From positions 10,374 through 74,373 of IMG/VR virus record IMGVR_UViG_3300037153_000324: a stretch of 64,000 nt of DNA, one strand, 5' to 3'. This stretch comes from a virus. The translations under genes and the position numbers were made by a program. A model generated the notes under the pieces. That model was not told where the DNA came from. It did not search any database and saw only the letters and a program-made list of their open reading frames with translations. Below, one piece after another: positions 36,386 to 63,207 of this stretch. Each line of letters begins with the position of its first letter. Positions within the stretch are counted from its first letter, which is position 1.

Positions 36386-36988
36386 TTGAAAATTCTCGCC
36401 GTACTAAGCTGCGCTGCCTTCGTCGCCGGAGGCGGCGTAGTGGCATCAGCGAGTGCTAGCGCCAGCCAGGCGCAGGTAAAAGCACAAATGACCAAACTGA
36501 AAATCAAGATCAACTATGCCACTCGGTTCGTCAAGCACGACCGCTCTGTAATTCGGGCAGGCGTAGAGTGGATTCCATTAGGTGCGAGCGTGCAGATGCT
36601 CGATCCCCACCCCAACATGGAATTACACCGGAAACACATGCGCACGATGTACAGAATCGTCCGACAGAGCAGGGTAAAGCTGGCAGAATTGCAGAAAGTC
36701 TACAGGAGGCTGTATATCAGCCTAACTCGACCGGCTCATTACACTCAGTGGCTTTGCATTCACCACTTCGAAGGAGCGTGGAATGCGAACACTGGGAATG
36801 GGTATTACGGCGGTTTGCAAATGGATTACGGCTTTATGTCCACGTACGGTTGGAGTCTGCTGAAATTGAAGGGTACGGCGGACAGGTGGACACCCTTGGA
36901 GCAGATGCAGGTCGCTGAGAGAGCCTATGCTTCTGGCAGGGGCTTCAACCCCTGGCCGAACACAGCGAGGTACTGCGGGTTACTGTGA
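36386..36988 (+). CDS. Resuscitation-promoting-factor (Rpf)-like transglycosylase, secreted
   Basis: Signal peptide; W.CI..FEG.W.ANTGNGYYGGLQ...EQ..VAER....G..PWP...CG. Confidence 0.85.
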   Translation: MKILAVLSCAAFVAGGGVVASASASASQAQVKAQMTKLKIKINYATRFVKHDRSVIRAGVEWIPLGASVQMLDPHPNMELHRKHMRTMYRIVRQSRVKLAELQKVYRRLYISLTRPAHYTQWLCIHHFEGAWNANTGNGYYGGLQMDYGFMSTYGWSLLKLKGTADRWTPLEQMQVAERAYASGRGFNPWPNTARYCGLL

Positions 36989-39465: not shown

Positions 39466-39661
39466 CGAGCGCTATGTGGACAGGGTTGTTGTCGTCAAGA
39501 AAGGCGATCATGCTTTTGTCAGACTCGTTTCGAACAACGGTGAAATTTTGCTGGTGTCCGAAAACTTCCAGAATATGTCATGGGCTGCGGCAGTAGGTAT
39601 CAAACTGGCCGAGCAATTGGGTGTTTCCTATGAAGTGCTAGACGTGGAGGTAGCAAAATGA
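39452..39661 (+). CDS. DUF1508/YegP-like small protein
   Basis: RLVSNNGEILLVSE motif. Confidence 0.5.
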   Translation: MKMTDERYVDRVVVVKKGDHAFVRLVSNNGEILLVSENFQNMSWAAAVGIKLAEQLGVSYEVLDVEVAK

Positions 39662-39990
39662 AGCCTGGTGAAATTGTCAAGGTCAAGCAGCGGACGGGTG
39701 AGCGTGGTCGTCCGAAGGAAGTGACAGTTCTTGGCAGCAAAGACAAAGATGAAATCAAGATCCTCTCGCAGAACAAGGCAGCGCCGGAAGTCGAGATTTA
39801 CGACCGTGAGCGCTCTGCTGAGCCAGAAAGGACGGTTGAGTTAGGGCATGTGCCCACCCGAGTAACCGAAGCTGATAAGATTCGCTACAAGCCACGCAAA
39901 CCGGAGGAGCCTGAAATTCGGCTGAACGAGGCCGATCACAAGAAGTGGGAGAAAATCAAGACGTTGGACGAGGACGATGATGTGAAATGA
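39658..39990 (+). CDS. Hypothetical charged protein (RGRPK motif)
   Basis: ORF with GGAGG SD. Confidence 0.5.
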   Translation: MKPGEIVKVKQRTGERGRPKEVTVLGSKDKDEIKILSQNKAAPEVEIYDRERSAEPERTVELGHVPTRVTEADKIRYKPRKPEEPEIRLNEADHKKWEKIKTLDEDDDVK

Positions 39991-41514: not shown

Positions 41515-42654
41515 TTGGCGAGGACAAGAGAGAAGTTTCAGATTCGCCGCGTCAAGTCGAAAGAGGATCGCAAGCGGCCGTCTGTTTTCATGCGATTGAA
41601 AACGGATGAGGCGTTCAAGGGTGTGGCGTTGTTCGAGCCAGATCCCGAGTTGGACGACAACCCCGGCTATTTCGAGTATTACGACCACTGGGATCAGCAG
41701 GGGCAACAGTACGTCCCTTGTGCGGGTGAAATGTGCCCCTTCTGCAAGGCGAACGACAATCCTTCGACTCGGGCAATGACCGTCTGGTATTTCCCTGAGG
41801 CGGCAGACGTGAAAGACCAGATCAAGGTTTTCACGATGAATTTCAGCACGATCAACGACATTACCGACGAGGCCGAGGAAGAGGACGGCTTGATCGGTAA
41901 GAAGGTGCGCATCAAGCGTCTGTCCGACAAGGGCGATTACAAGGTGCGCGTGCTCACCGAGAAGGGCCTGACCGAAACGCAGTTGAAAAAGGTCATGGCT
42001 CGTCTCGATGAAGTGTTCCCTGACGGTCTGGAAGGCATTACGCTCGCACAGTTGAAGCGTCAGATGGAGCGCTTGCGTGCTCTGGACGAGTTGGAGGACG
42101 ACGACGAGGACGACGAGCAGGACGAGCAGCCCAAGGCTCGCCGTGGTCGGGCAATTTCAAAGGACGAGGAAGAGGACGAAGAGGAAGAGGACGACGAAGA
42201 GGAAGAGGACGAAGAGGAAGAGGACGACGAAGAGGACGAAGAGCCGACCGACGAAGAGGACGAAGAGGAGGAAGAGGAGGAGGACGACGAAGAGGACGAC
42301 GACGAGGAAGAGGACGAGGAAGAGCAGGAGCAGGCTGAAATTACAGCGGCCGAGTACGAAGTTCTCAAGTCGAGCGAGCGTGACGACACGTTCGAGTTGC
42401 AGAACGACGAGGGCAAGGTGAAGATGTGGCTCGGAGAGAACGTCGAGGTTGACTACGACGAATTCCCGAAGGGCACGCCTGTCACCGTCTCCGCGCTTCA
42501 GGACGACGAGGGCGATTGGATCATCACTGAAATCAAGGTGAAAAAGCGTCGTGGTCGTCCGCCTGCGTCCAAGGCCAAGACGCGGACAAGCCGCGCAGCC
42601 TCGTCTCGTTCCAGCGGTTCGACTCGCGGCCGGGGTAGGCCGCGTAAGCGGTAA
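41515..42654 (+). CDS. ssDNA-binding protein (gp32-like) with acidic tract, extra OB-like domain and AT-hook tail
   Basis: HW...C...CPFC Zn core after the primase; long E/D tract; RRGRPP and RGRGRPRKR. Confidence 0.65.
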   Translation: MARTREKFQIRRVKSKEDRKRPSVFMRLKTDEAFKGVALFEPDPELDDNPGYFEYYDHWDQQGQQYVPCAGEMCPFCKANDNPSTRAMTVWYFPEAADVKDQIKVFTMNFSTINDITDEAEEEDGLIGKKVRIKRLSDKGDYKVRVLTEKGLTETQLKKVMARLDEVFPDGLEGITLAQLKRQMERLRALDELEDDDEDDEQDEQPKARRGRAISKDEEEDEEEEDDEEEEDEEEEDDEEDEEPTDEEDEEEEEEEDDEEDDDEEEDEEEQEQAEITAAEYEVLKSSERDDTFELQNDEGKVKMWLGENVEVDYDEFPKGTPVTVSALQDDEGDWIITEIKVKKRRGRPPASKAKTRTSRAASSRSSGSTRGRGRPRKR

Positions 42655-56739: not shown

Positions 56740-57227
56740 AAATTCCTTTGTATGGACGAAAAGGCATTGTTGCTTGGGCGCGAGTTTCTAGGCGTGATTT
56801 CGATTGGCTAAATGAGAATCACTGGAATTTGATGGCGAATGGTTATGCGTATCGGCGTGGTAGGAATGATGAAGGTCGAGCGGAGAGCCGTCGTATTCGA
56901 GAATGTATTTTCATGCATCGAGAAATTCTTGGCTTGGTAAAAGGTGATGGTCTACAGGTTGACCATGTGAACCGGGATAGGCTCGATAACCGACGATGTA
57001 ATTTGCGAGTGGTTATGCCAAGGCATCAAGGGCATAACATCATGCGGCATGGAAATTTCACTTCACAGTTTCGTGGTGTGGCCTGGGATCAAAAAAGTGG
57101 TAGGTGGGAATCCTACGTGCATGTTCGTGGGAGGAAATTTTCAGCAGGCCGGTTTGATTCAGAGCGAGAGGCGGCAAGGGCGGCTCAAGCTTTGCGTTTT
57201 GAGTTATTGAGCCATGCCGTTGACTAA
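56736..57227 (+). mobile_element. HNH-AP2 homing endonuclease
   Basis: MHREIL...VDHVNRDRLDNRRCNLR; SQFRGV.W.....W....G.F.SE.EAARA. Confidence 0.9.
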
Positions 57228-57247
57228 TTGACCTAGGGTGCTATACT
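57220..57247 (+). promoter_or_regulatory. Promoter upstream of the helicase
   Basis: TTGACT-N16-TATACT with extended -10 TG; the ATG 8 nt downstream suggests a leaderless mRNA. Confidence 0.65.
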
Positions 57248-57255
57248 GAAGCGGC

Positions 57256-59469
57256 ATGATCGTTGACAATTTCATCTATCTCAACATTGACGAGCTTACG
57301 GAGCGCGAATGGGACAAGCTGCTCCGCTCGTTGACGTTCGAGCTTCCCAATGGCGACGTAGCCGTGGGCTATCGGCGCTATCTGACCAAGGGGTATTTCA
57401 AGCTTCCTCGCGGTGCCTGGTACCTCCTGCCGAATCATGTTCGCTATCACGACAAGCGCGTGGCTCCGGAGATGCCAGAGCTAAATTTCACTTTGAAGCT
57501 GGATGACACGGAGAAGGATGAGCGCTTCGCCGGTCAGGTCGAAGCCCTCAGTGCAATGTTCGAGAACGAGCAGGGGCAGATCATTCGACCGCCTGGCTGT
57601 ATTTCGGGTGATGCCGTGATCGAAGTCAATCGGGGCGGAAAGAGCTTCAAGACGACGATGCGTGATCTTGTCATGCGCCTGAACGGCGGGAATGTCCATT
57701 GGGGCCGAAAATGGGATCTTTCAATTCCGACGATGATCCGCGCTCGTTTCCCTGACGGAACCATTCGCTTGACTGAAATCAAGGATTCGTGGGAGTCGGG
57801 CAAGAAGGCTGTCTACGAAGTGAAAACGAAATCGGGTCGAGCGGTCAGAGCGACGGCAGATCATCCGTTCTTGACGAATCGTGGATGGCGGAAGCTGTCT
57901 CAGCTTCGGGTCGGCACGAATGTCTATGTCGATGGCGGCAAGATGAAGTGGACAGGAGAACGAAAGAAGCTTGTCTATCGTGAAATTCAAGGGTTGGTTG
58001 GTCATCCTTATGCTTTGGAGCGCCCGCACAAGGGTTATGCCCGTTGGTCGTGCCCCGCTCATCGGATCGTTGTCGAAGCCGACTTGAACAAGCTTGCGCT
58101 GGGTGAGTACGTTGATCGCCTGCGGGCAAATGAAATCAGCGGGCTGACGTTTCTCGATCCGGCTGTAGTCGTTCATCACAAAGACAACGATCCGACCAAC
58201 AACAAACTCTCCAACTTGGAAGTGAAAGAGTCGCCTAGTGCTCATGCTGTGGAGCATGGCGTAAATGGCGGCTGGCGCAGGGTAACTGCTCGTACCTCAA
58301 TTGAGGAAATTGTTTCGATTACAGAGATTGGCGTCGAGGAGACGTTTGATCTTGAAGTTGGAGATCCGAGCAATTACATTGCGAATGGGTTTGTCGTTCA
58401 CAATACGGGAAAAACCCAAGTTGCACTTGCGTTTGCTGCGGAGTGCCGCACGCGGACGCTTGTGCTTGTTCACACGGCCGACATTCTCAAGCAGTGGGTG
58501 GAGTACACCGAGAACGCAATTCCTGAGCTAAAGGGAAAGGTGGGTGTAATTCAGGGCAAGCGCTGTCAGGTCGGCCACATCACGATTGGAATGGTGCAGT
58601 CACTCGTCAAGTACACGCATGACAAGAAATTCTGGCAGCAATTTGGGTGTGTAATCGCGGACGAAGCACATCACGTCGCTGCACCCACATGGGAAGGCGT
58701 GCTCAACTCCTGCCCTGCGTATTACCGTTTCGGTTTCACGGCTTCTGCCACTAGAGCGGACGGAATGCATCCCGCAATGAAGTACATTCTCGGCCCGATC
58801 ATTTACCGGCAGAAATTCACCAGTCCGGTCAAGCTGGAAGTGGTGCCTGTCAAGACGAATTTCTATGCCCCGTATCGAGGGCGCTTTGACTGGGGAAATA
58901 TTCTTCGTGCCCTGATCGTGGACGAGGAGCGCAATCAACAAATCGCAAAGGTGGTAGACGATGAAATCAACGCCGGAAACAGTGTCCTCGTTCTTAGCCG
59001 AAGAATTGAGCATCTTGGAGCAATTGCTGAGGCTATGCAAGCACCAGTCGAAATTCTTACAGCAAGGCGTGGAAAGCATAATCGTGGACGAATCCTTGAC
59101 CAGTTTAGATCGGGGGAAATTCGATGCGTTCTTGCTACGCAACTTGCTGACGAAGCTCTCGACGTGCCAAGACTCAATCGAGTTTGCCTTGTCCACCCTG
59201 GAAAGCATGAAGGGCGAATCGTTCAGCAGATCGGACGGGCACTAAGGCAGCACCCCGACAAGAAAGATGCTGTAATTTACGACTTCTACGATCCGCGTGT
59301 GGGTGTGCTACGGCGACAGTGGGATCGAAGAAAGCTCGCGTACCGGAAGAACAAAATTTCAATTAGAAAGCGAGGCTCACTGTGGCTGTCACACGGGCGG
59401 CGAACGGACAGTACATCGTCAAGACAGAAGCCGAAGCTAAGAAAGCGCTTACGCTTTTCCAAAACATGA
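57256..59469 (+). CDS. SF2 (DEAH) helicase, intein-interrupted
   Basis: PPG|TGKT, DEAHH, TASATRADG, ALDVP.L, QQIGRALR. Confidence 0.9.
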   Translation: MIVDNFIYLNIDELTEREWDKLLRSLTFELPNGDVAVGYRRYLTKGYFKLPRGAWYLLPNHVRYHDKRVAPEMPELNFTLKLDDTEKDERFAGQVEALSAMFENEQGQIIRPPGCISGDAVIEVNRGGKSFKTTMRDLVMRLNGGNVHWGRKWDLSIPTMIRARFPDGTIRLTEIKDSWESGKKAVYEVKTKSGRAVRATADHPFLTNRGWRKLSQLRVGTNVYVDGGKMKWTGERKKLVYREIQGLVGHPYALERPHKGYARWSCPAHRIVVEADLNKLALGEYVDRLRANEISGLTFLDPAVVVHHKDNDPTNNKLSNLEVKESPSAHAVEHGVNGGWRRVTARTSIEEIVSITEIGVEETFDLEVGDPSNYIANGFVVHNTGKTQVALAFAAECRTRTLVLVHTADILKQWVEYTENAIPELKGKVGVIQGKRCQVGHITIGMVQSLVKYTHDKKFWQQFGCVIADEAHHVAAPTWEGVLNSCPAYYRFGFTASATRADGMHPAMKYILGPIIYRQKFTSPVKLEVVPVKTNFYAPYRGRFDWGNILRALIVDEERNQQIAKVVDDEINAGNSVLVLSRRIEHLGAIAEAMQAPVEILTARRGKHNRGRILDQFRSGEIRCVLATQLADEALDVPRLNRVCLVHPGKHEGRIVQQIGRALRQHPDKKDAVIYDFYDPRVGVLRRQWDRRKLAYRKNKISIRKRGSLWLSHGRRTDSTSSRQKPKLRKRLRFSKT
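57598..58404 (+). mobile_element. Intein (269 aa) with HNH endonuclease
   Basis: CISGD start, TADHPF block B, VHHKDNDPTNN.LSNL, NYIANGFVVHN end, +1 Thr. Confidence 0.92.
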
Positions 59470-59897
59470 AGGATGAAATTGACGAGATAAAGAAGGAGTC
59501 CGGTATTGACGAGATGGAACTGGATTGCGTCGAGCTAAAGCGAGCCGTTACCGCGTTCATGGTCGAGAACAGTCTCGACCGTTTGAATTTCAAGAAGGGT
59601 TTTCACGGCACGCTCGTCCGGGCGACGTATGGCGCGACGTGGATTGGTGAGCGCAGCCAGCTAACGGACGATGCGCCGGGGTATGCGGTACCGCTCAAGG
59701 AACTGCTCACAAAGAAATTCAAGCGCAGTCCTGATAAGGCTAAGAAGATGTGGCTACGTTTGACGACGAGAATTCCTGATCCCATCAAGATTGAGGAAGC
59801 CATTGCCGAGGGTGTAATTACAGTGCAGGATGTGGCACCGGCATGGTGGGAAAAAGACAAGTCCCCATATCTCCGGATATTTTCATCTGATGATTAG
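59382..59897 (+). CDS. Hypothetical protein (Gam-like?)
   Basis: N-terminal coiled coil; family unsure. Confidence 0.45.
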   Translation: MAVTRAANGQYIVKTEAEAKKALTLFQNMKDEIDEIKKESGIDEMELDCVELKRAVTAFMVENSLDRLNFKKGFHGTLVRATYGATWIGERSQLTDDAPGYAVPLKELLTKKFKRSPDKAKKMWLRLTTRIPDPIKIEEAIAEGVITVQDVAPAWWEKDKSPYLRIFSSDD

Positions 59898-60201
59898 GAA
59901 GAAAACGAAAACGAAATTGAAGCTGAATGAGCTTCCCTACGATCAGCAGTTACCAAGGCGTAGGGATCTTGCGTATTTGAAGCCGCCGAAGTTCAAGCAG
60001 TACGTGACCATTCGTGAGCTTTCAGATATCGTGGAAAAGGACATTTCATGGATTCGAAAGCTCGAACGGGACAACAGAATTCCAAAGGCGTCTCGGGTCA
60101 AGCGTGGTCGTCTCGAAGTCCGGATGTGGAGTCCGGAGCAGGTGGACGAAATCGAGCGGATCATTGCGGGCCACCACAAGGGACGACCGCGCGGCTCTTG
60201 A
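59890..60201 (+). CDS. MerR-like HTH DNA-binding protein
   Basis: TIRELSDIVEKDISWIRKLE...IP...R...R.WS.EQV; C-terminal KGRPR. Confidence 0.7.
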   Translation: MIRKKTKTKLKLNELPYDQQLPRRRDLAYLKPPKFKQYVTIRELSDIVEKDISWIRKLERDNRIPKASRVKRGRLEVRMWSPEQVDEIERIIAGHHKGRPRGS

Positions 60202-60236
60202 AATCCCTGCAAATTGCCCTTTCGCGAAATTGGAAC

Positions 60237-60264
60237 TTGACGGCTTGACAATTACTGCTAAGCT
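60237..60264 (+). promoter_or_regulatory. Putative promoter
   Basis: TTGACG-N16-TAAGCT with extended -10 TG. Confidence 0.5.
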
Positions 60265-60315
60265 GTGCGGGTGGTCAATTCCGGCCCGATGAAAGAGAGA
60301 GAAGGAGGCAAGACG

Positions 60316-61173
60316 ATGGCAGCAAGACTCGCGGATCTGAGGGCACAGGCGAAGCGCCTTGGAATTCCCTCGTCCGAGATTCGCAGTGCGTCGAGCGTGC
60401 GTGAGCTTCGTGACCTGATCGCGGAGTACGACACTCCCAAGCGCACTGTCAAGCGCACTGTCAAAAAGGCTGTCGCCAAGAAGGCGACTGCGAAAAAGCA
60501 GCCCGTCCGGAGGGGTCGGCCCCCGAAGGCCAAGGCTGTGACCACTCGCAAGGCCGCACCTGCCCGGTCGCGCAAGAGCGGCACGGCGAAGCGACGGCCC
60601 GCTGCGAGCGGAAACGGTGACGGAAGGCATCTGCTCGGGCGCGTGAATTACAAGAAGCGCTGGAATGCCCGTGAGGGTAGCGCTCCCGACCAGATCATCA
60701 AGGCGCTGGCGAAGTACAACGGCGACCGCGAGAAGGTCTACTCCGTCCTCGTCAAGCGCGTGTGGGATTTCACCAACAAGATCAAGCGCGATGGCTCGCG
60801 GCGGACTCTGCCCGAGGCGCAGCAGATGTTGAAATACCGCATCGCTCGCACGGCTTGGGACTTCGCGATTCAGACCGGCCAGCACGACAAGGCCACGGAT
60901 CGCGTCGAGTACGGCACGGGCGGCACCGGAAACGGTACGTGGAAGCCCGTCACGGCGACTCGCAAGGCGACGACTCGCCGCAAGGTGTCAACGACTCGCA
61001 AGGCATCGACCGTCAAGAAGGCAGGAGCGGCCCGTAGAGGCCGTCCTGCCAAGGCGGCGGTCGTGAAGCGTGGTCGGCCTGCGAAGGCGGCAGGAGCCAA
61101 GCGAGGGCGTCCTGTGGGCAGTAAGAACAAGACCACGACTCGCGCTCGCGGTCGTGCAGCGGCTCGTCGGTAG
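60316..61173 (+). CDS. Histone H1/HMGA-like basic protein with four AT-hook motifs
   Basis: K/A/R/T-rich arms; RRGRPPK, RRGRPAK, KRGRPAK, KRGRPVGSKNK; AAGGAGG SD. Confidence 0.75.
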   Translation: MAARLADLRAQAKRLGIPSSEIRSASSVRELRDLIAEYDTPKRTVKRTVKKAVAKKATAKKQPVRRGRPPKAKAVTTRKAAPARSRKSGTAKRRPAASGNGDGRHLLGRVNYKKRWNAREGSAPDQIIKALAKYNGDREKVYSVLVKRVWDFTNKIKRDGSRRTLPEAQQMLKYRIARTAWDFAIQTGQHDKATDRVEYGTGGTGNGTWKPVTATRKATTRRKVSTTRKASTVKKAGAARRGRPAKAAVVKRGRPAKAAGAKRGRPVGSKNKTTTRARGRAAARR

Positions 61174-61179
61174 AAAAGG

Positions 61180-61217
61180 CTGAAAAACCCCGGCTGAAAT
61201 ATTCCGGGGTTTTTCAG
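61180..61217. terminator. Bidirectional terminator
   Basis: CTGAAAAACCCCGG / CCGGGGTTTTTCAG perfect 14-bp inverted repeat. Confidence 0.8.
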
Positions 61218-61268
61218 TTCTCGAAATGTCCCTAGGACAAATTCTCATCCGACAGTGAAGGAAATTAC

Positions 61269-62282
61269 ATGCAACAGAAGGATATGTACATCGGTAGGGT
61301 GGTCGAAATCGTCAAGGTTGGACGAGGCGTGCGCAGGTTGACCGGCGTCAAAGCTCGCATTGACGATTTTGGAATTCCAAGCTCGTCCTTCTCGAACCGT
61401 CACGATGAAGTCCAAATTACAATTTTGGACTCGGACGGTAATCCGGCTACTGTTTTCGATTCCACGACGGGCAATCATGTTTTCAGGATGCGCCGTGTGC
61501 TCTCGCGTGAGATAGTCTCGGTTGATGAGGCCGACGCATTGCGCGAGGAAAAAGCTGAGGCTGAGCGTATCCGAATTGAGCGAGCCGAAAAACGGCGTGC
61601 GTTGCAAGAGCATTATGAAAATGTCCTGGCCGAACTGGGTTTCGAGGAGAACGAGGTTTGGGTTGTGGCTAGGAGCAACAACAATGGCGAACCTGAAATT
61701 TCAATGTTGAGGTTCAGTGGCAACGGTGCTGAAAAGTTGCTCAAACTCCTCTACAACGGTGAGCAGGGCGAGAATGCCGACTAGAATTGCAGTCATTCTC
61801 GCCTGGTCGGCTCTGTTCGTATGGGGCATGGGTTGGAGCGGCTTGTACTGGGGGCCAATTTCATTCGGGGTAGTTGCGTTCCTGTGGTATCTTGTGTCGG
61901 ACACGCTTCACGTAATCAAGAAGGGTGTTCAGGGACTTGCAGGAACCCACGTCACGAATTACAACTTGAACGTGGAGGAGCCAGCAATCAGGGGAGAGCG
62001 CATCAACCCTGATCCGACCGGCCCGGAGATTTACCCGGCCGTCATCGAAGGGAGAAGGTACAAATGAAATATCCGCCTGTCGAGGAGATTCTGAATCGGG
62101 TGTATAGCCCGGATGATTTCGATGGACTGCCGCTCGTCATCGTGACTGAGATGGAGAACATGGGCGGCTTTGAGGTTCCGGTCGAGGGTATGACGCTGCT
62201 CGGCCCGAACTGCGTCTATTACAGCCGGACGCTGACCCGTCCCCCGTGTCCGCCGATCCTCTATCACGTCTGCCTCAACTGA
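61269..62282 (+). CDS. Three hypothetical ORFs (61269-61784; 61774-62067, two-TM; 62064-62282)
   Basis: ORF track, SD sites. Confidence 0.5.
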
Positions 62283-62382
62283 CCGCTAAAGGAAATTTGA
62301 TAGCGCATGCTAGACTTGACGTGGTGAGTGAGCAGGCCACCCTACTCACTCACCAAACGTCAACCGAGGTAAGGAGTCCGAA

Positions 62383-62901
62383 ATGAAAAAGCGAGCTACA
62401 GCCAAGATTGGCAGCGATGCGGTCAAGGGTGAATTCTTTTTCTGGAAGCCACGACCCAAGAAATCGCGCTCGACGTGGAAGCCGCCGCTCCGGAAAAAGC
62501 GCCGGTTCAGTCATATTCAGTCCAAGGCTCAGACGCCGTGGCTAGTGCGCGACGAAAACGAGCGGATCAAGCTTGAAATGGAGCAGGCCATCGCTGAAAT
62601 TGTAGTGCCGGATGGCTGGACGAAAACGGGTGATGCACTAGGTGGCATCGTCGTTGCTCGCACCAAGGGCGACAAGCGGATCAGTCGTGTAATTGATCCC
62701 GATGGAAATGTGATGAGCGAGACAGCTTTCACCGTTTCACCGCCCACTACTCAGACGTACACACAGACTCTTACGCGGCTGCTCAAGGAGGGAGACAAGC
62801 ATTTTCTCCGGTGGGCAGTCACCAATCCCGAAGCTCGCGAGCTTGCGATCAAACTCGGAGTGAAATTGCCAATCCGCAAAAAGACCCGAAAGGAGCAGTA
62901 G
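62383..62901 (+). CDS. Hypothetical basic protein
   Basis: AAGGAG SD; preceded by the 11-bp hairpin TGGTGAGTGAG/CTCACTCACCA. Confidence 0.55.
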   Translation: MKKRATAKIGSDAVKGEFFFWKPRPKKSRSTWKPPLRKKRRFSHIQSKAQTPWLVRDENERIKLEMEQAIAEIVVPDGWTKTGDALGGIVVARTKGDKRISRVIDPDGNVMSETAFTVSPPTTQTYTQTLTRLLKEGDKHFLRWAVTNPEARELAIKLGVKLPIRKKTRKEQ

Positions 62902-63207
62902 TTGTCCAGGTTTATTCTACTGTCGTCGGCTGTGGCAACATTTGTTGCGGCGCTCGCACTTGCGTTCACGGCGGCGGCGCATGCTACAGCGAATTACAAA
63001 TGGTCGCATGCACAGGAAGCTGCTGTGCTTCAAGGCTGTATTAGCAACGGTCGTGGAAATTCCAACCTCTTCTGTGTCTGTACGCTGCGCTGGTTGGAGC
63101 GGCGTTATTCATGGAGTCGGCTTGCGACGATTTATCTGCGTCGGCCGGTGTACTACACTGGTGTAATTGCTGTCAACGCCTCCCGTGCCTGTATCGCCTA
63201 CGACTGA
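62902..63207 (+). CDS. Secreted Cys-containing protein
   Basis: Signal peptide ending AHA; four Cys. Confidence 0.55.
   Translation: MSRFILLSSAVATFVAALALAFTAAAHATANYKWSHAQEAAVLQGCISNGRGNSNLFCVCTLRWLERRYSWSRLATIYLRRPVYYTGVIAVNASRACIAYD

Follow-up and report, generated by a model that had tools for sequence, protein, structure and literature searches.

Which function could be served, in a phage genome, by a gene whose product joins AT-hooks of the HMGA type to basic tails of the linker histone H1 type? The question is raised by a gene located within a 64,000-nucleotide stretch of viral DNA (the window), corresponding to positions 10374-74373 of a 74,373-base record. The 'terminal repeat' of the record is a 127-base overlap of its ends, so that the map may be circular or permuted. 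The window carries structural genes (terminase, portal, capsid, sheath, baseplate), replication genes (DnaB-like helicase, primase, Pol III alpha-type polymerase, RecA/UvsX-like recombinase) and a gene for a Cas4-like nuclease; all ORFs matching a phage family are found on the + strand. No tRNA gene was found in the window, and neither an integrase nor a repressor among the 62 ORFs scanned against PHROGs. The gene under study encodes what is here called the HMGA/H1-like protein, with a pI of 11.9 and a net charge of about +62, as calculated from composition. The features of the locus are collected in Table 1.

Table 1. Features of the HMGA/H1-like locus and HIRAN-domain genes of related loci. 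Coordinates refer to the window, except for the last row, where they refer to the locus named.
Feature	Position	Strand	Details
Candidate sigma-70-type promoter	60237-60264	+	-35 TTGACG 60237-60242, N16, -10 TAAGCT 60259-60264
Extent of RNA-library contigs	60297-61178		four runs X7, X8, X9, X10
Shine-Dalgarno AAGGAGG	60302-60308	+	7 nt 5' of ATG
CDS, HMGA/H1-like protein	60316-61173	+	ATG 60316 to TAG 61173; 285 aa, 31.4 kDa
N-terminal helix-extension-helix (SAP/Rho-N-like by predicted fold) motif	60316-60435	+	residues 1-40, AF2 pLDDT 84-94
Basic disordered arm 1	60436-60624	+	residues 41-103, net +22, pLDDT 49-56, AT-hook 1
AT-hook 1, RGRP	60511-60522	+	in arm 1
Conserved globular core	60625-60915	+	residues 104-200, pLDDT >90 (about 110-190)
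Basic disordered arm 2	60916-61170	+	residues 201-285, net +28, no D/E, AT-hooks 2-4
AT-hooks 2-4, RGRP	61036-61047, 61069-61080, 61102-61113	+	arm 2, 11-residue spacing
Intrinsic terminator hairpin	61180-61217	+	14-bp perfect stem, 10-nt loop CTGAAATATT, T-run within 3' arm
HIRAN-domain genes in relatives	L003 734-1108; L004 3574-3912; L005 3222-3680		Pfam 38-43 bits, cut-off 24.7

The gene and its signals

The initial annotation had described the gene as provided with its own promoter, a strong Shine-Dalgarno sequence, strongly GC3-biased codons and a perfect terminator, and each of these elements was found again. A longer reading frame, starting from a GTG at 60265, is unlikely; the homologues begin with MAxL. 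A Shine-Dalgarno-like word, represented in the window by AAGGAGG, occurs at 34 of 36 homologue loci.

For the evaluation of the promoter, related loci were pooled from viral contigs (5) and metagenome contigs (68), and the 36 in which the homologue was complete and preceded by 130 nt or more of sequence were used. In 32 of them the 130 nt preceding the homologue contain the pattern TTGACN-N15-18-TANNNT, at a distance of 51-117 nt from the start, against 137 of 3497 control windows of the same length (3.9%); two of the four negative loci are due to wrongly assigned start codons. Six promoter-like sites of this type are present in all on the + strand of the window. A generic promoter scan called no promoter upstream of the gene.

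The two arms of the terminator (61180-61193 and 61204-61217, 14 nt each) are 100% complementary, and the predicted folding energy of -26.2 kcal/mol (z -4.64) was equalled by none of 200 shuffled sequences. The hairpin was missed by a generic terminator scan, whose limit for the loop is 8 nt, against the 10 nt present here. A hairpin with a T-run is located 3' of the stop codon at 29 of 42 homologue loci, according to a crude criterion based on GC-rich hairpins. Since both promoter and terminator are conserved, the gene is a conserved, self-contained unit served by a host-type polymerase.

The GC content at third codon positions, 0.745, is the highest among 48 ORFs (mean 0.544, sd 0.084). Lysine is encoded by AAG in 92% of cases, against 61% in 15 large ORFs, and arginine by CGC in 45%, against 21%. 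The 1-kb bin 60001-61000 is also the one with the highest GC, 0.607, among the 64 bins of the window.

Some further elements are found at the same site. On the minus strand, an antisense ORF of 279 aa (60046-60885) overlaps the gene; as all homology lies in the + frame, it is taken to be a by-product of the high GC of the + strand gene. A box, (A/T)CCCAGGG(A/T)C, lies between the terminator and the next gene, in the window as GTCCCTAGGACAA at 61235-61250, and was seen by eye, uncounted, downstream of the homologues in many loci. Again by eye, the terminator loops often contain the local form of a word enriched in these phages and described below (TGAAAT, TGAAATT or TGAAAA), as is the case in the window (61194-61203) and at the related loci L004, L009, L016, L030, L033, L034, L036, L057 and L068.

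Presence in RNA libraries

Sequencing runs were searched by using the 6-kb stretch 57000-63000, and not the gene alone; the focus of the RNA on the HMGA/H1-like gene is therefore not an artefact of the query. All sampled words of the stretch are contained in six DNA runs, and 7-14% of them in five metatranscriptome runs. Contigs from the RNA libraries of four of these five runs, all from soil, were aligned to the stretch. In X7 a single contig of 882 nt covers 60297-61178 with 0 differences; in X8 two contigs are found, at 60301-60724 and 60770-61171, while in X9 and X10 the contig pieces fall inside 60307-61164. Over the flanks, 57000-60296 and 61179-63000, the four runs contain no RNA contig except for 151 nt at 61615-61765 in X9, a lack which does not equal transcriptional silence.

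The contig starts from three studies agree within 10 nt and no loose ends are seen, which is a weak hint that starts and ends of the contigs reflect those of the transcript. The contigs support transcription of the gene as a separate unit. They carry neither strand nor expression level; in combination with the codon bias, they support, rather than prove, that the gene is well expressed. The initial annotation had called it highly expressed. Presence in four runs and codon bias speak for such a statement, but contigs cannot rank levels, so that it holds only weakly.

Folded and disordered parts of the protein

The protein was modelled by AlphaFold2 with 40 homologues, and the resulting subdivision is reported in Table 1. 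The initial annotation had proposed a globular core flanked by K/A/R/T-rich arms. A folded core between such arms was indeed found in the model, but residues 1-40, previously taken as part of an arm, are predicted to be folded.

In this N-terminal motif, helices are predicted at residues 5-14, 19-24 and 28-39, and the family consensus reads MAxLxxLRxxAKxLGIPxxxIRxAxTAxELQxxI. Structural comparison revealed similarity to TAF1 (6mzm_A; VIA Z 5.4, rmsd 1.9 A, 40 residues aligned), to the SAP domain of MANF (6h9u_B; Z 5.0) and to the N-terminus of Rho (1a62; Z 4.9). The matches extend over 39-41 residues with rmsd values of 1.9-3.6 A and several SAP-type entries agree, all Z values lying below 8, the confidence line of the tool. 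At the sequence level, Pfam gave no SAP or Rho_N match for the HMGA/H1-like protein, a PDB profile search returned no SAP or Rho entry, and a Rho_N match was obtained for one of 40 relatives (E 0.0088). The motif may thus be called SAP/HeH-like on the basis of the predicted fold only.

The core is composed, in the model, of an extended N-terminal segment and three helices (123-133, 138-151, 165-187), with the basic hairpin loop KIKRDGSRR separating helices 2 and 3, and a TGQH motif after helix 3. Its net charge, by composition, is +11. In 135 sequences, residues Q189 and H190 never vary; in a set of 40 sequences R104, W116, R119, P124, D125, Q189, H190 and R196 are all invariant. The core modelled by itself is still well defined (pLDDT 84, pTM 0.72). 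No match for it was found in Pfam or PDB by sequence, and its best score in the ESM Atlas, 0.83, is at a level also reached by shuffled proteins. The Foldseek search on the core, proposed as a check in the initial annotation, returned nothing from PDB at E<=0.001, nor did the full model against PDB and BFVD at the same threshold. The best structural match obtained is the SANT-like domain of DMAP1 (Z 5.0), followed by scattered three-helix DNA- or chromatin-binding domains (Z 4.0-4.6); all the matches of the predicted core, the best included, are within noise. The prediction of a two-copy complex of the core (alignment A3) scored 0.01, where 0.42 is the mark for a call.

Arm 2 contains 12 K, 16 R, 17 A and 13 T in its 85 residues and, according to its composition, is a long K/A/T/P-rich basic tail of the linker histone H1 type. 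The two arms contain the sequence RGRP at residues 66, 241, 252 and 263. Upon shuffling of the arms, the mean number of RGRP was 0.033, and four were never reached in 100,000 shuffles. The DBD2 peptide of HMGA1, given as KRPRGRPKGSKNKGAA in PMC11947522, contains the hook RGRPKGSKNK, and the last hook of the HMGA/H1-like protein, RGRPVGSKNK, is identical to it in 9 of 10 residues. The four AT-hooks originally noted, one of them near to that of HMGA, are thus present. The Pfam AT_hook model (PF02178) scored below its gathering cut-off (12.0 vs 17.4 bits, E 0.21), which says little about the motif, as the model has only 13 positions; at E<=0.1 it was detected in 2 of 40 relatives.

The internal DNA repeats reported in the initial annotation were also recovered. 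AAGCGCACTGTC is repeated in tandem at 60439-60462, encoding a KRTV repeat in arm 1, and repeats of the CGACTCGCAAGGC type are present in the gene. In addition, two of the hooks are covered by a 33-nt tandem repeat (61039-61104), which indicates hook duplication.

A family with interchangeable tails

A word-indexed search found 177 homologous proteins at E<=0.01; the 120 listed bear either no name or the label 'hypothetical', and range in length from 226 to 361 aa. By searching a profile of the core against 1.84 billion representatives (clusters at 50% identity), about 208 clusters were detected at E<=0.001, all of metagenomic origin. Among the 150 of these that were listed, ranging from 105 to 408 aa, the core is central and no fusion to another domain is seen. 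Neither megablast with 58000-63000 nor tblastn with the protein found a match in 50,697 GenBank phage records, and PHROGs contained none for the protein. The genome contigs of 185,579 species, each represented by one genome, gave 69 pattern matches, of which 0 were confirmed as relatives. These absences fit a lineage of uncultured, non-integrating phages.

The basic tails are variable within the family. At least one xGRP hook is present in 127 of 221 full-length members, while the other 94 have none and carry K/A/T-rich tails; K+R amount on average to 26% in the family. On a FastTree tree of 220 cores, presence of hooks changes at least 41 times, whereas shuffled labels gave 71 changes on average and never fewer than 61. 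Because their state changes repeatedly along the tree, hooks are regarded as an optional form of a generic basic tail; as 94 of 221 members have no hooks, reading of AT-rich DNA by AT-hooks cannot be the conserved function. The number of hooks falls with increasing GC of the flanking DNA (Spearman -0.50, p 0.0065, 28 loci), a trend which, the loci being related, may be phylogenetic.

Pfam HC2 (PF07382) was detected in 9 of 40 relatives (best E 3.2e-6), through their low-complexity tails, and the HMGA/H1-like protein itself has no HC2 match in Pfam. In the literature searched, no description was found of this family, or of a tailed-phage family so built. Closest to it come a predicted Hc1-like H1 protein of large aquatic phages (PMC12619734) and an AT-hook protein from a PM2-like element (PMC1950889). 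Tails of the AT-hook and H1-like kinds are reported to be rare in bacteria (PMC8156234).

Genomic context

The gene is surrounded by genes of DNA metabolism, and about 25 kb separate it from the point where the structural module ends. The order helicase, protein of about 170 aa, small HTH-like protein, HIRAN protein and HMGA/H1-like gene is conserved; in the window the HIRAN gene is missing, and a gap of 114 bases separates the HTH gene from the HMGA/H1-like gene. The small HTH-like protein (59830-60201) ends with KGRPRGS, and its relatives also end in GRP.

Other features of the window may be reported here. The helicase (57256-59469; ResIII + Helicase_C) is split, at about residues 170-383, by an intein with an HNH nuclease, and its relatives in L002 and L004, of 444-445 aa, are without intein. 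A 379-aa protein encoded at 41515-42654 ends with two C-terminal RGRP hooks; its GC3, 0.732, is the second-highest, and no family match was found for it. One GRP hook is also present in a 110-aa ORF at 39658-39990. An Rpf-type transglycosylase-like domain is encoded at 36386-36988 (PF06737, 35 bits vs a cut-off of 27). Given the distribution of this domain, it is, together with the TANNNT -10 boxes, a weak hint of an actinobacterial host.

Enrichment of the word TGWAATT

The window contains 254 copies of TGWAATT, about one per 250 bases, where 18.6 +/- 4.5 are expected, and GAAATT is its most enriched 6-mer (298 vs 53 expected). For k-mers, expectations were derived from dinucleotides, as scoring by high-order Markov models masked this lattice of words. 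Within the HMGA/H1-like gene the word is found once, against 3.4 copies expected from length. In related phages the enriched word is TGAAAT, TGAAATT, TGTAATT or, for one group, TGAAAAC. TGAAA-type enrichment was present in all related loci tested, and TGAAA, not AATT, is the part shared.

A connection with the hooks is suggested by published data, according to which AT-hooks bind the minor groove of AATT and the HMGA1 target used for NMR, GGGAAATTCCTC, contains GAAATT (both PMC8476142). The comparison rests on 31 loci, each 4 kb or longer and with homologues distinct from one another, after dropping three duplicates and four loci in which no homologue was found by pattern. Over the 28 with complete genes, the number of hooks did not correlate with AATT enrichment (Spearman -0.11, p 0.59), the medians being 1.87 for hook-less (n=11) and 1.92 for hook-carrying loci (n=17). 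The type of word, TGAAAA or TGAAAT, was not associated with hooks either (Fisher p 0.30), and hook-less members occur in phages rich in TGAAATT (L009, L018, L027). The possibility that the promoter of the gene carries the phage's own word was considered and discarded: this was the case for 6 of 26 promoters, with 4.3 expected (P about 0.24).

Comparison with known proteins

HMGA proteins are small and wholly disordered, with three hooks and an acidic C-terminal tail. The HMGA/H1-like protein resembles HMGA1 and HMGA2 in having several RGRP hooks in a disordered basic chain, one of them almost identical to that of HMGA1, and in a role presumed to be architectural. It differs in having two confidently folded parts and no D/E in the C-terminal arm, and no homology to HMGA is detectable beyond the hook motif. 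The tripartite organization, a globular middle between K/A/T-rich basic tails, is instead that of H1/H5 and of Chlamydia Hc1/Hc2. No Linker_histone match was found in the protein by Pfam at E<=1, and similarity of the predicted core to winged-helix folds reached only Z 4.3. In winged helices the wing is located after helix 3, whereas the hairpin of the core is predicted between helices 2 and 3. The N-terminal two-to-three-helix motif, of about 40 residues, is similar in predicted fold to SAP, HeH and the N-terminus of Rho (Z 4.9-5.4), and its family consensus resembles Rho_N; the remainder of the protein is unrelated to these.

Another likeness is with CarD of Myxococcus xanthus, whose disordered C-terminal domain, linked to a folded one, is described as bearing four RGRP hooks, with HMGA-type and H1-type tails being interchangeable (PMC8156234), as they appear to be across the family reported here. 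Unlike CarD, the HMGA/H1-like protein contains, according to Pfam, neither the RNAP-binding CarD_CdnL_TRCF domain nor the acidic stretch following it. A minor-groove element of the (R/Q)GR type, preferring AT-rich DNA, is shared with the silencers Lsr2, H-NS and MvaT (PMC8476142), which are abundant nucleoid proteins. In the silencers, however, the element belongs to a C-terminal domain that is folded and connected to an oligomerisation domain, while the hooks described here are located in disordered arms. No Lsr2 or H-NS domain was matched in Pfam at E<=1, and the core has no PDB sequence match.

Discussion

The gene probably encodes, in our judgement, an abundant architectural DNA-binding protein of the phage, whose tails may be of either HMGA or H1 type. 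From the anatomy, conservation, fold confidence and RNA presence observed, we infer DNA binding, abundance and an effect on DNA. The initial annotation had proposed a nucleoid protein coating phage DNA or a competitor of host Lsr2, a proposal which is supported in part, by the separate transcribed unit and by a make-up of AT-hooks, H1-like tails and a SAP-like motif such as an architectural DNA-binding protein would have. According to our reading, the gene would be transcribed alone, starting at a sigma-70-like promoter of host type and ending at a strong terminator, with codons and a ribosome site which would suit heavy translation. The protein would probably contact DNA at many points simultaneously: the SAP-like motif and the two basic arms could provide sequence-independent affinity and neutralise charge, the four RGRP hooks could insert into the minor groove of AATT-type sites, and the core, basic and with a basic hairpin, might contact either DNA or a partner protein in a specific manner. 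As a result, replicating phage DNA, and perhaps host DNA as well, may be bent, bridged or compacted. The free switching of the tails between HMGA and H1 type implies that the conserved job belongs to the core plus a generic basic anchor. Such switching parallels CarD, where HMGA and H1 tails are reported to be functionally equivalent (PMC8156234). The neighbouring helicase, HTH protein and HIRAN protein, in conserved order, support a role on DNA. Against DNA binding counts the predicted core, which is devoid of a recognisable DNA-binding fold, as do the sub-threshold Pfam AT_hook score and the N-terminal motif, which matches neither SAP nor Rho_N significantly by sequence; basic disordered tails also bind RNA. 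In addition, it is not evident why a further architectural protein should be needed, because three other ORFs have GRP hooks.

The main rival is an adaptor role of the CarD kind, in which the core would act as a protein hub recruiting RNA polymerase, the replisome or a repair factor, the tails serving only as a tether. The strict conservation of the core alone, against variable and interchangeable tails, would fit such a role, as would the same neighbouring genes; in CarD the folded domain is reported to be indispensable and the tail replaceable (PMC8156234), and it has been suggested that AT-hook proteins serve mobile elements as replication factors (PMC1950889). The lack of similarity to CarD_CdnL_TRCF or to any Pfam family, the basic nature of the core itself, and expression signals whose strength is better suited to a stoichiometric DNA coat than to a regulator make us consider it unlikely. 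More doubtful is the idea of a chromatin made by the phage, in which hooks, perhaps together with the core, would dock on the TGWAATT/TGAAA lattice and the arms would bridge sites, so that the DNA would be compacted and marked as self. If true, it would set the phage apart from a host genome without the lattice word. The abundance of the word, the occurrence of GAAATT within the HMGA1 target GGGAAATTCCTC (PMC8476142), the RNA contigs over the gene and the enrichment common to all tested related loci are in its favour. However, hooks and AATT enrichment are uncorrelated, hook-less members are found in phages rich in TGAAATT, the shared part of the word is not the one to which hooks bind, and, besides the three other ORFs with GRP hooks, any conserved gene of the lineage could equally well encode the reader.

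Three other readings appear less probable again. The extreme charge and the strong expression signals could be those of a packaged protein, condensing DNA and neutralising its charge in the capsid as adenovirus protein VII or mu; the distance from the structural module, and a host-type promoter found at only six sites in the window and not common to structural genes, make this very improbable. It is harder still to credit that the protein binds RNA, or acts as an RNA chaperone on phage transcripts: basic disordered tails and Rho-N-like motifs do occur in RNA-binding proteins, but RGRP hooks and SAP motifs are known above all as binders of double-stranded DNA, and no RNA-binding domain was found by Pfam. 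Least probable of all is competition with a xenogeneic silencer of the host such as Lsr2, by reaching AT-rich phage sites first. RGR-type hooks and Lsr2 are both reported to prefer AATT (PMC8476142), and the Rpf-type domain and the TANNNT boxes are weak actinobacterial hints, but a large part of the family is hook-less, and Lsr2 has been reported to be required for mycobacteriophage infection, rather than harmful to it (PMC10066036).

The sequences described here constitute an undescribed family of uncultured soil phages, with a well-folded core lacking a known relative. If the architectural role holds, the family would offer a tractable model of a bacterial virus organising DNA by a linker-histone-like protein of its own, and the repeated switching of the tails amounts to a natural test of whether those of HMGA and H1 are equivalent. 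The HMGA/H1-like protein is also a concrete candidate to be tested in connection with the word lattice of these phages, for which there is as yet no explanation.
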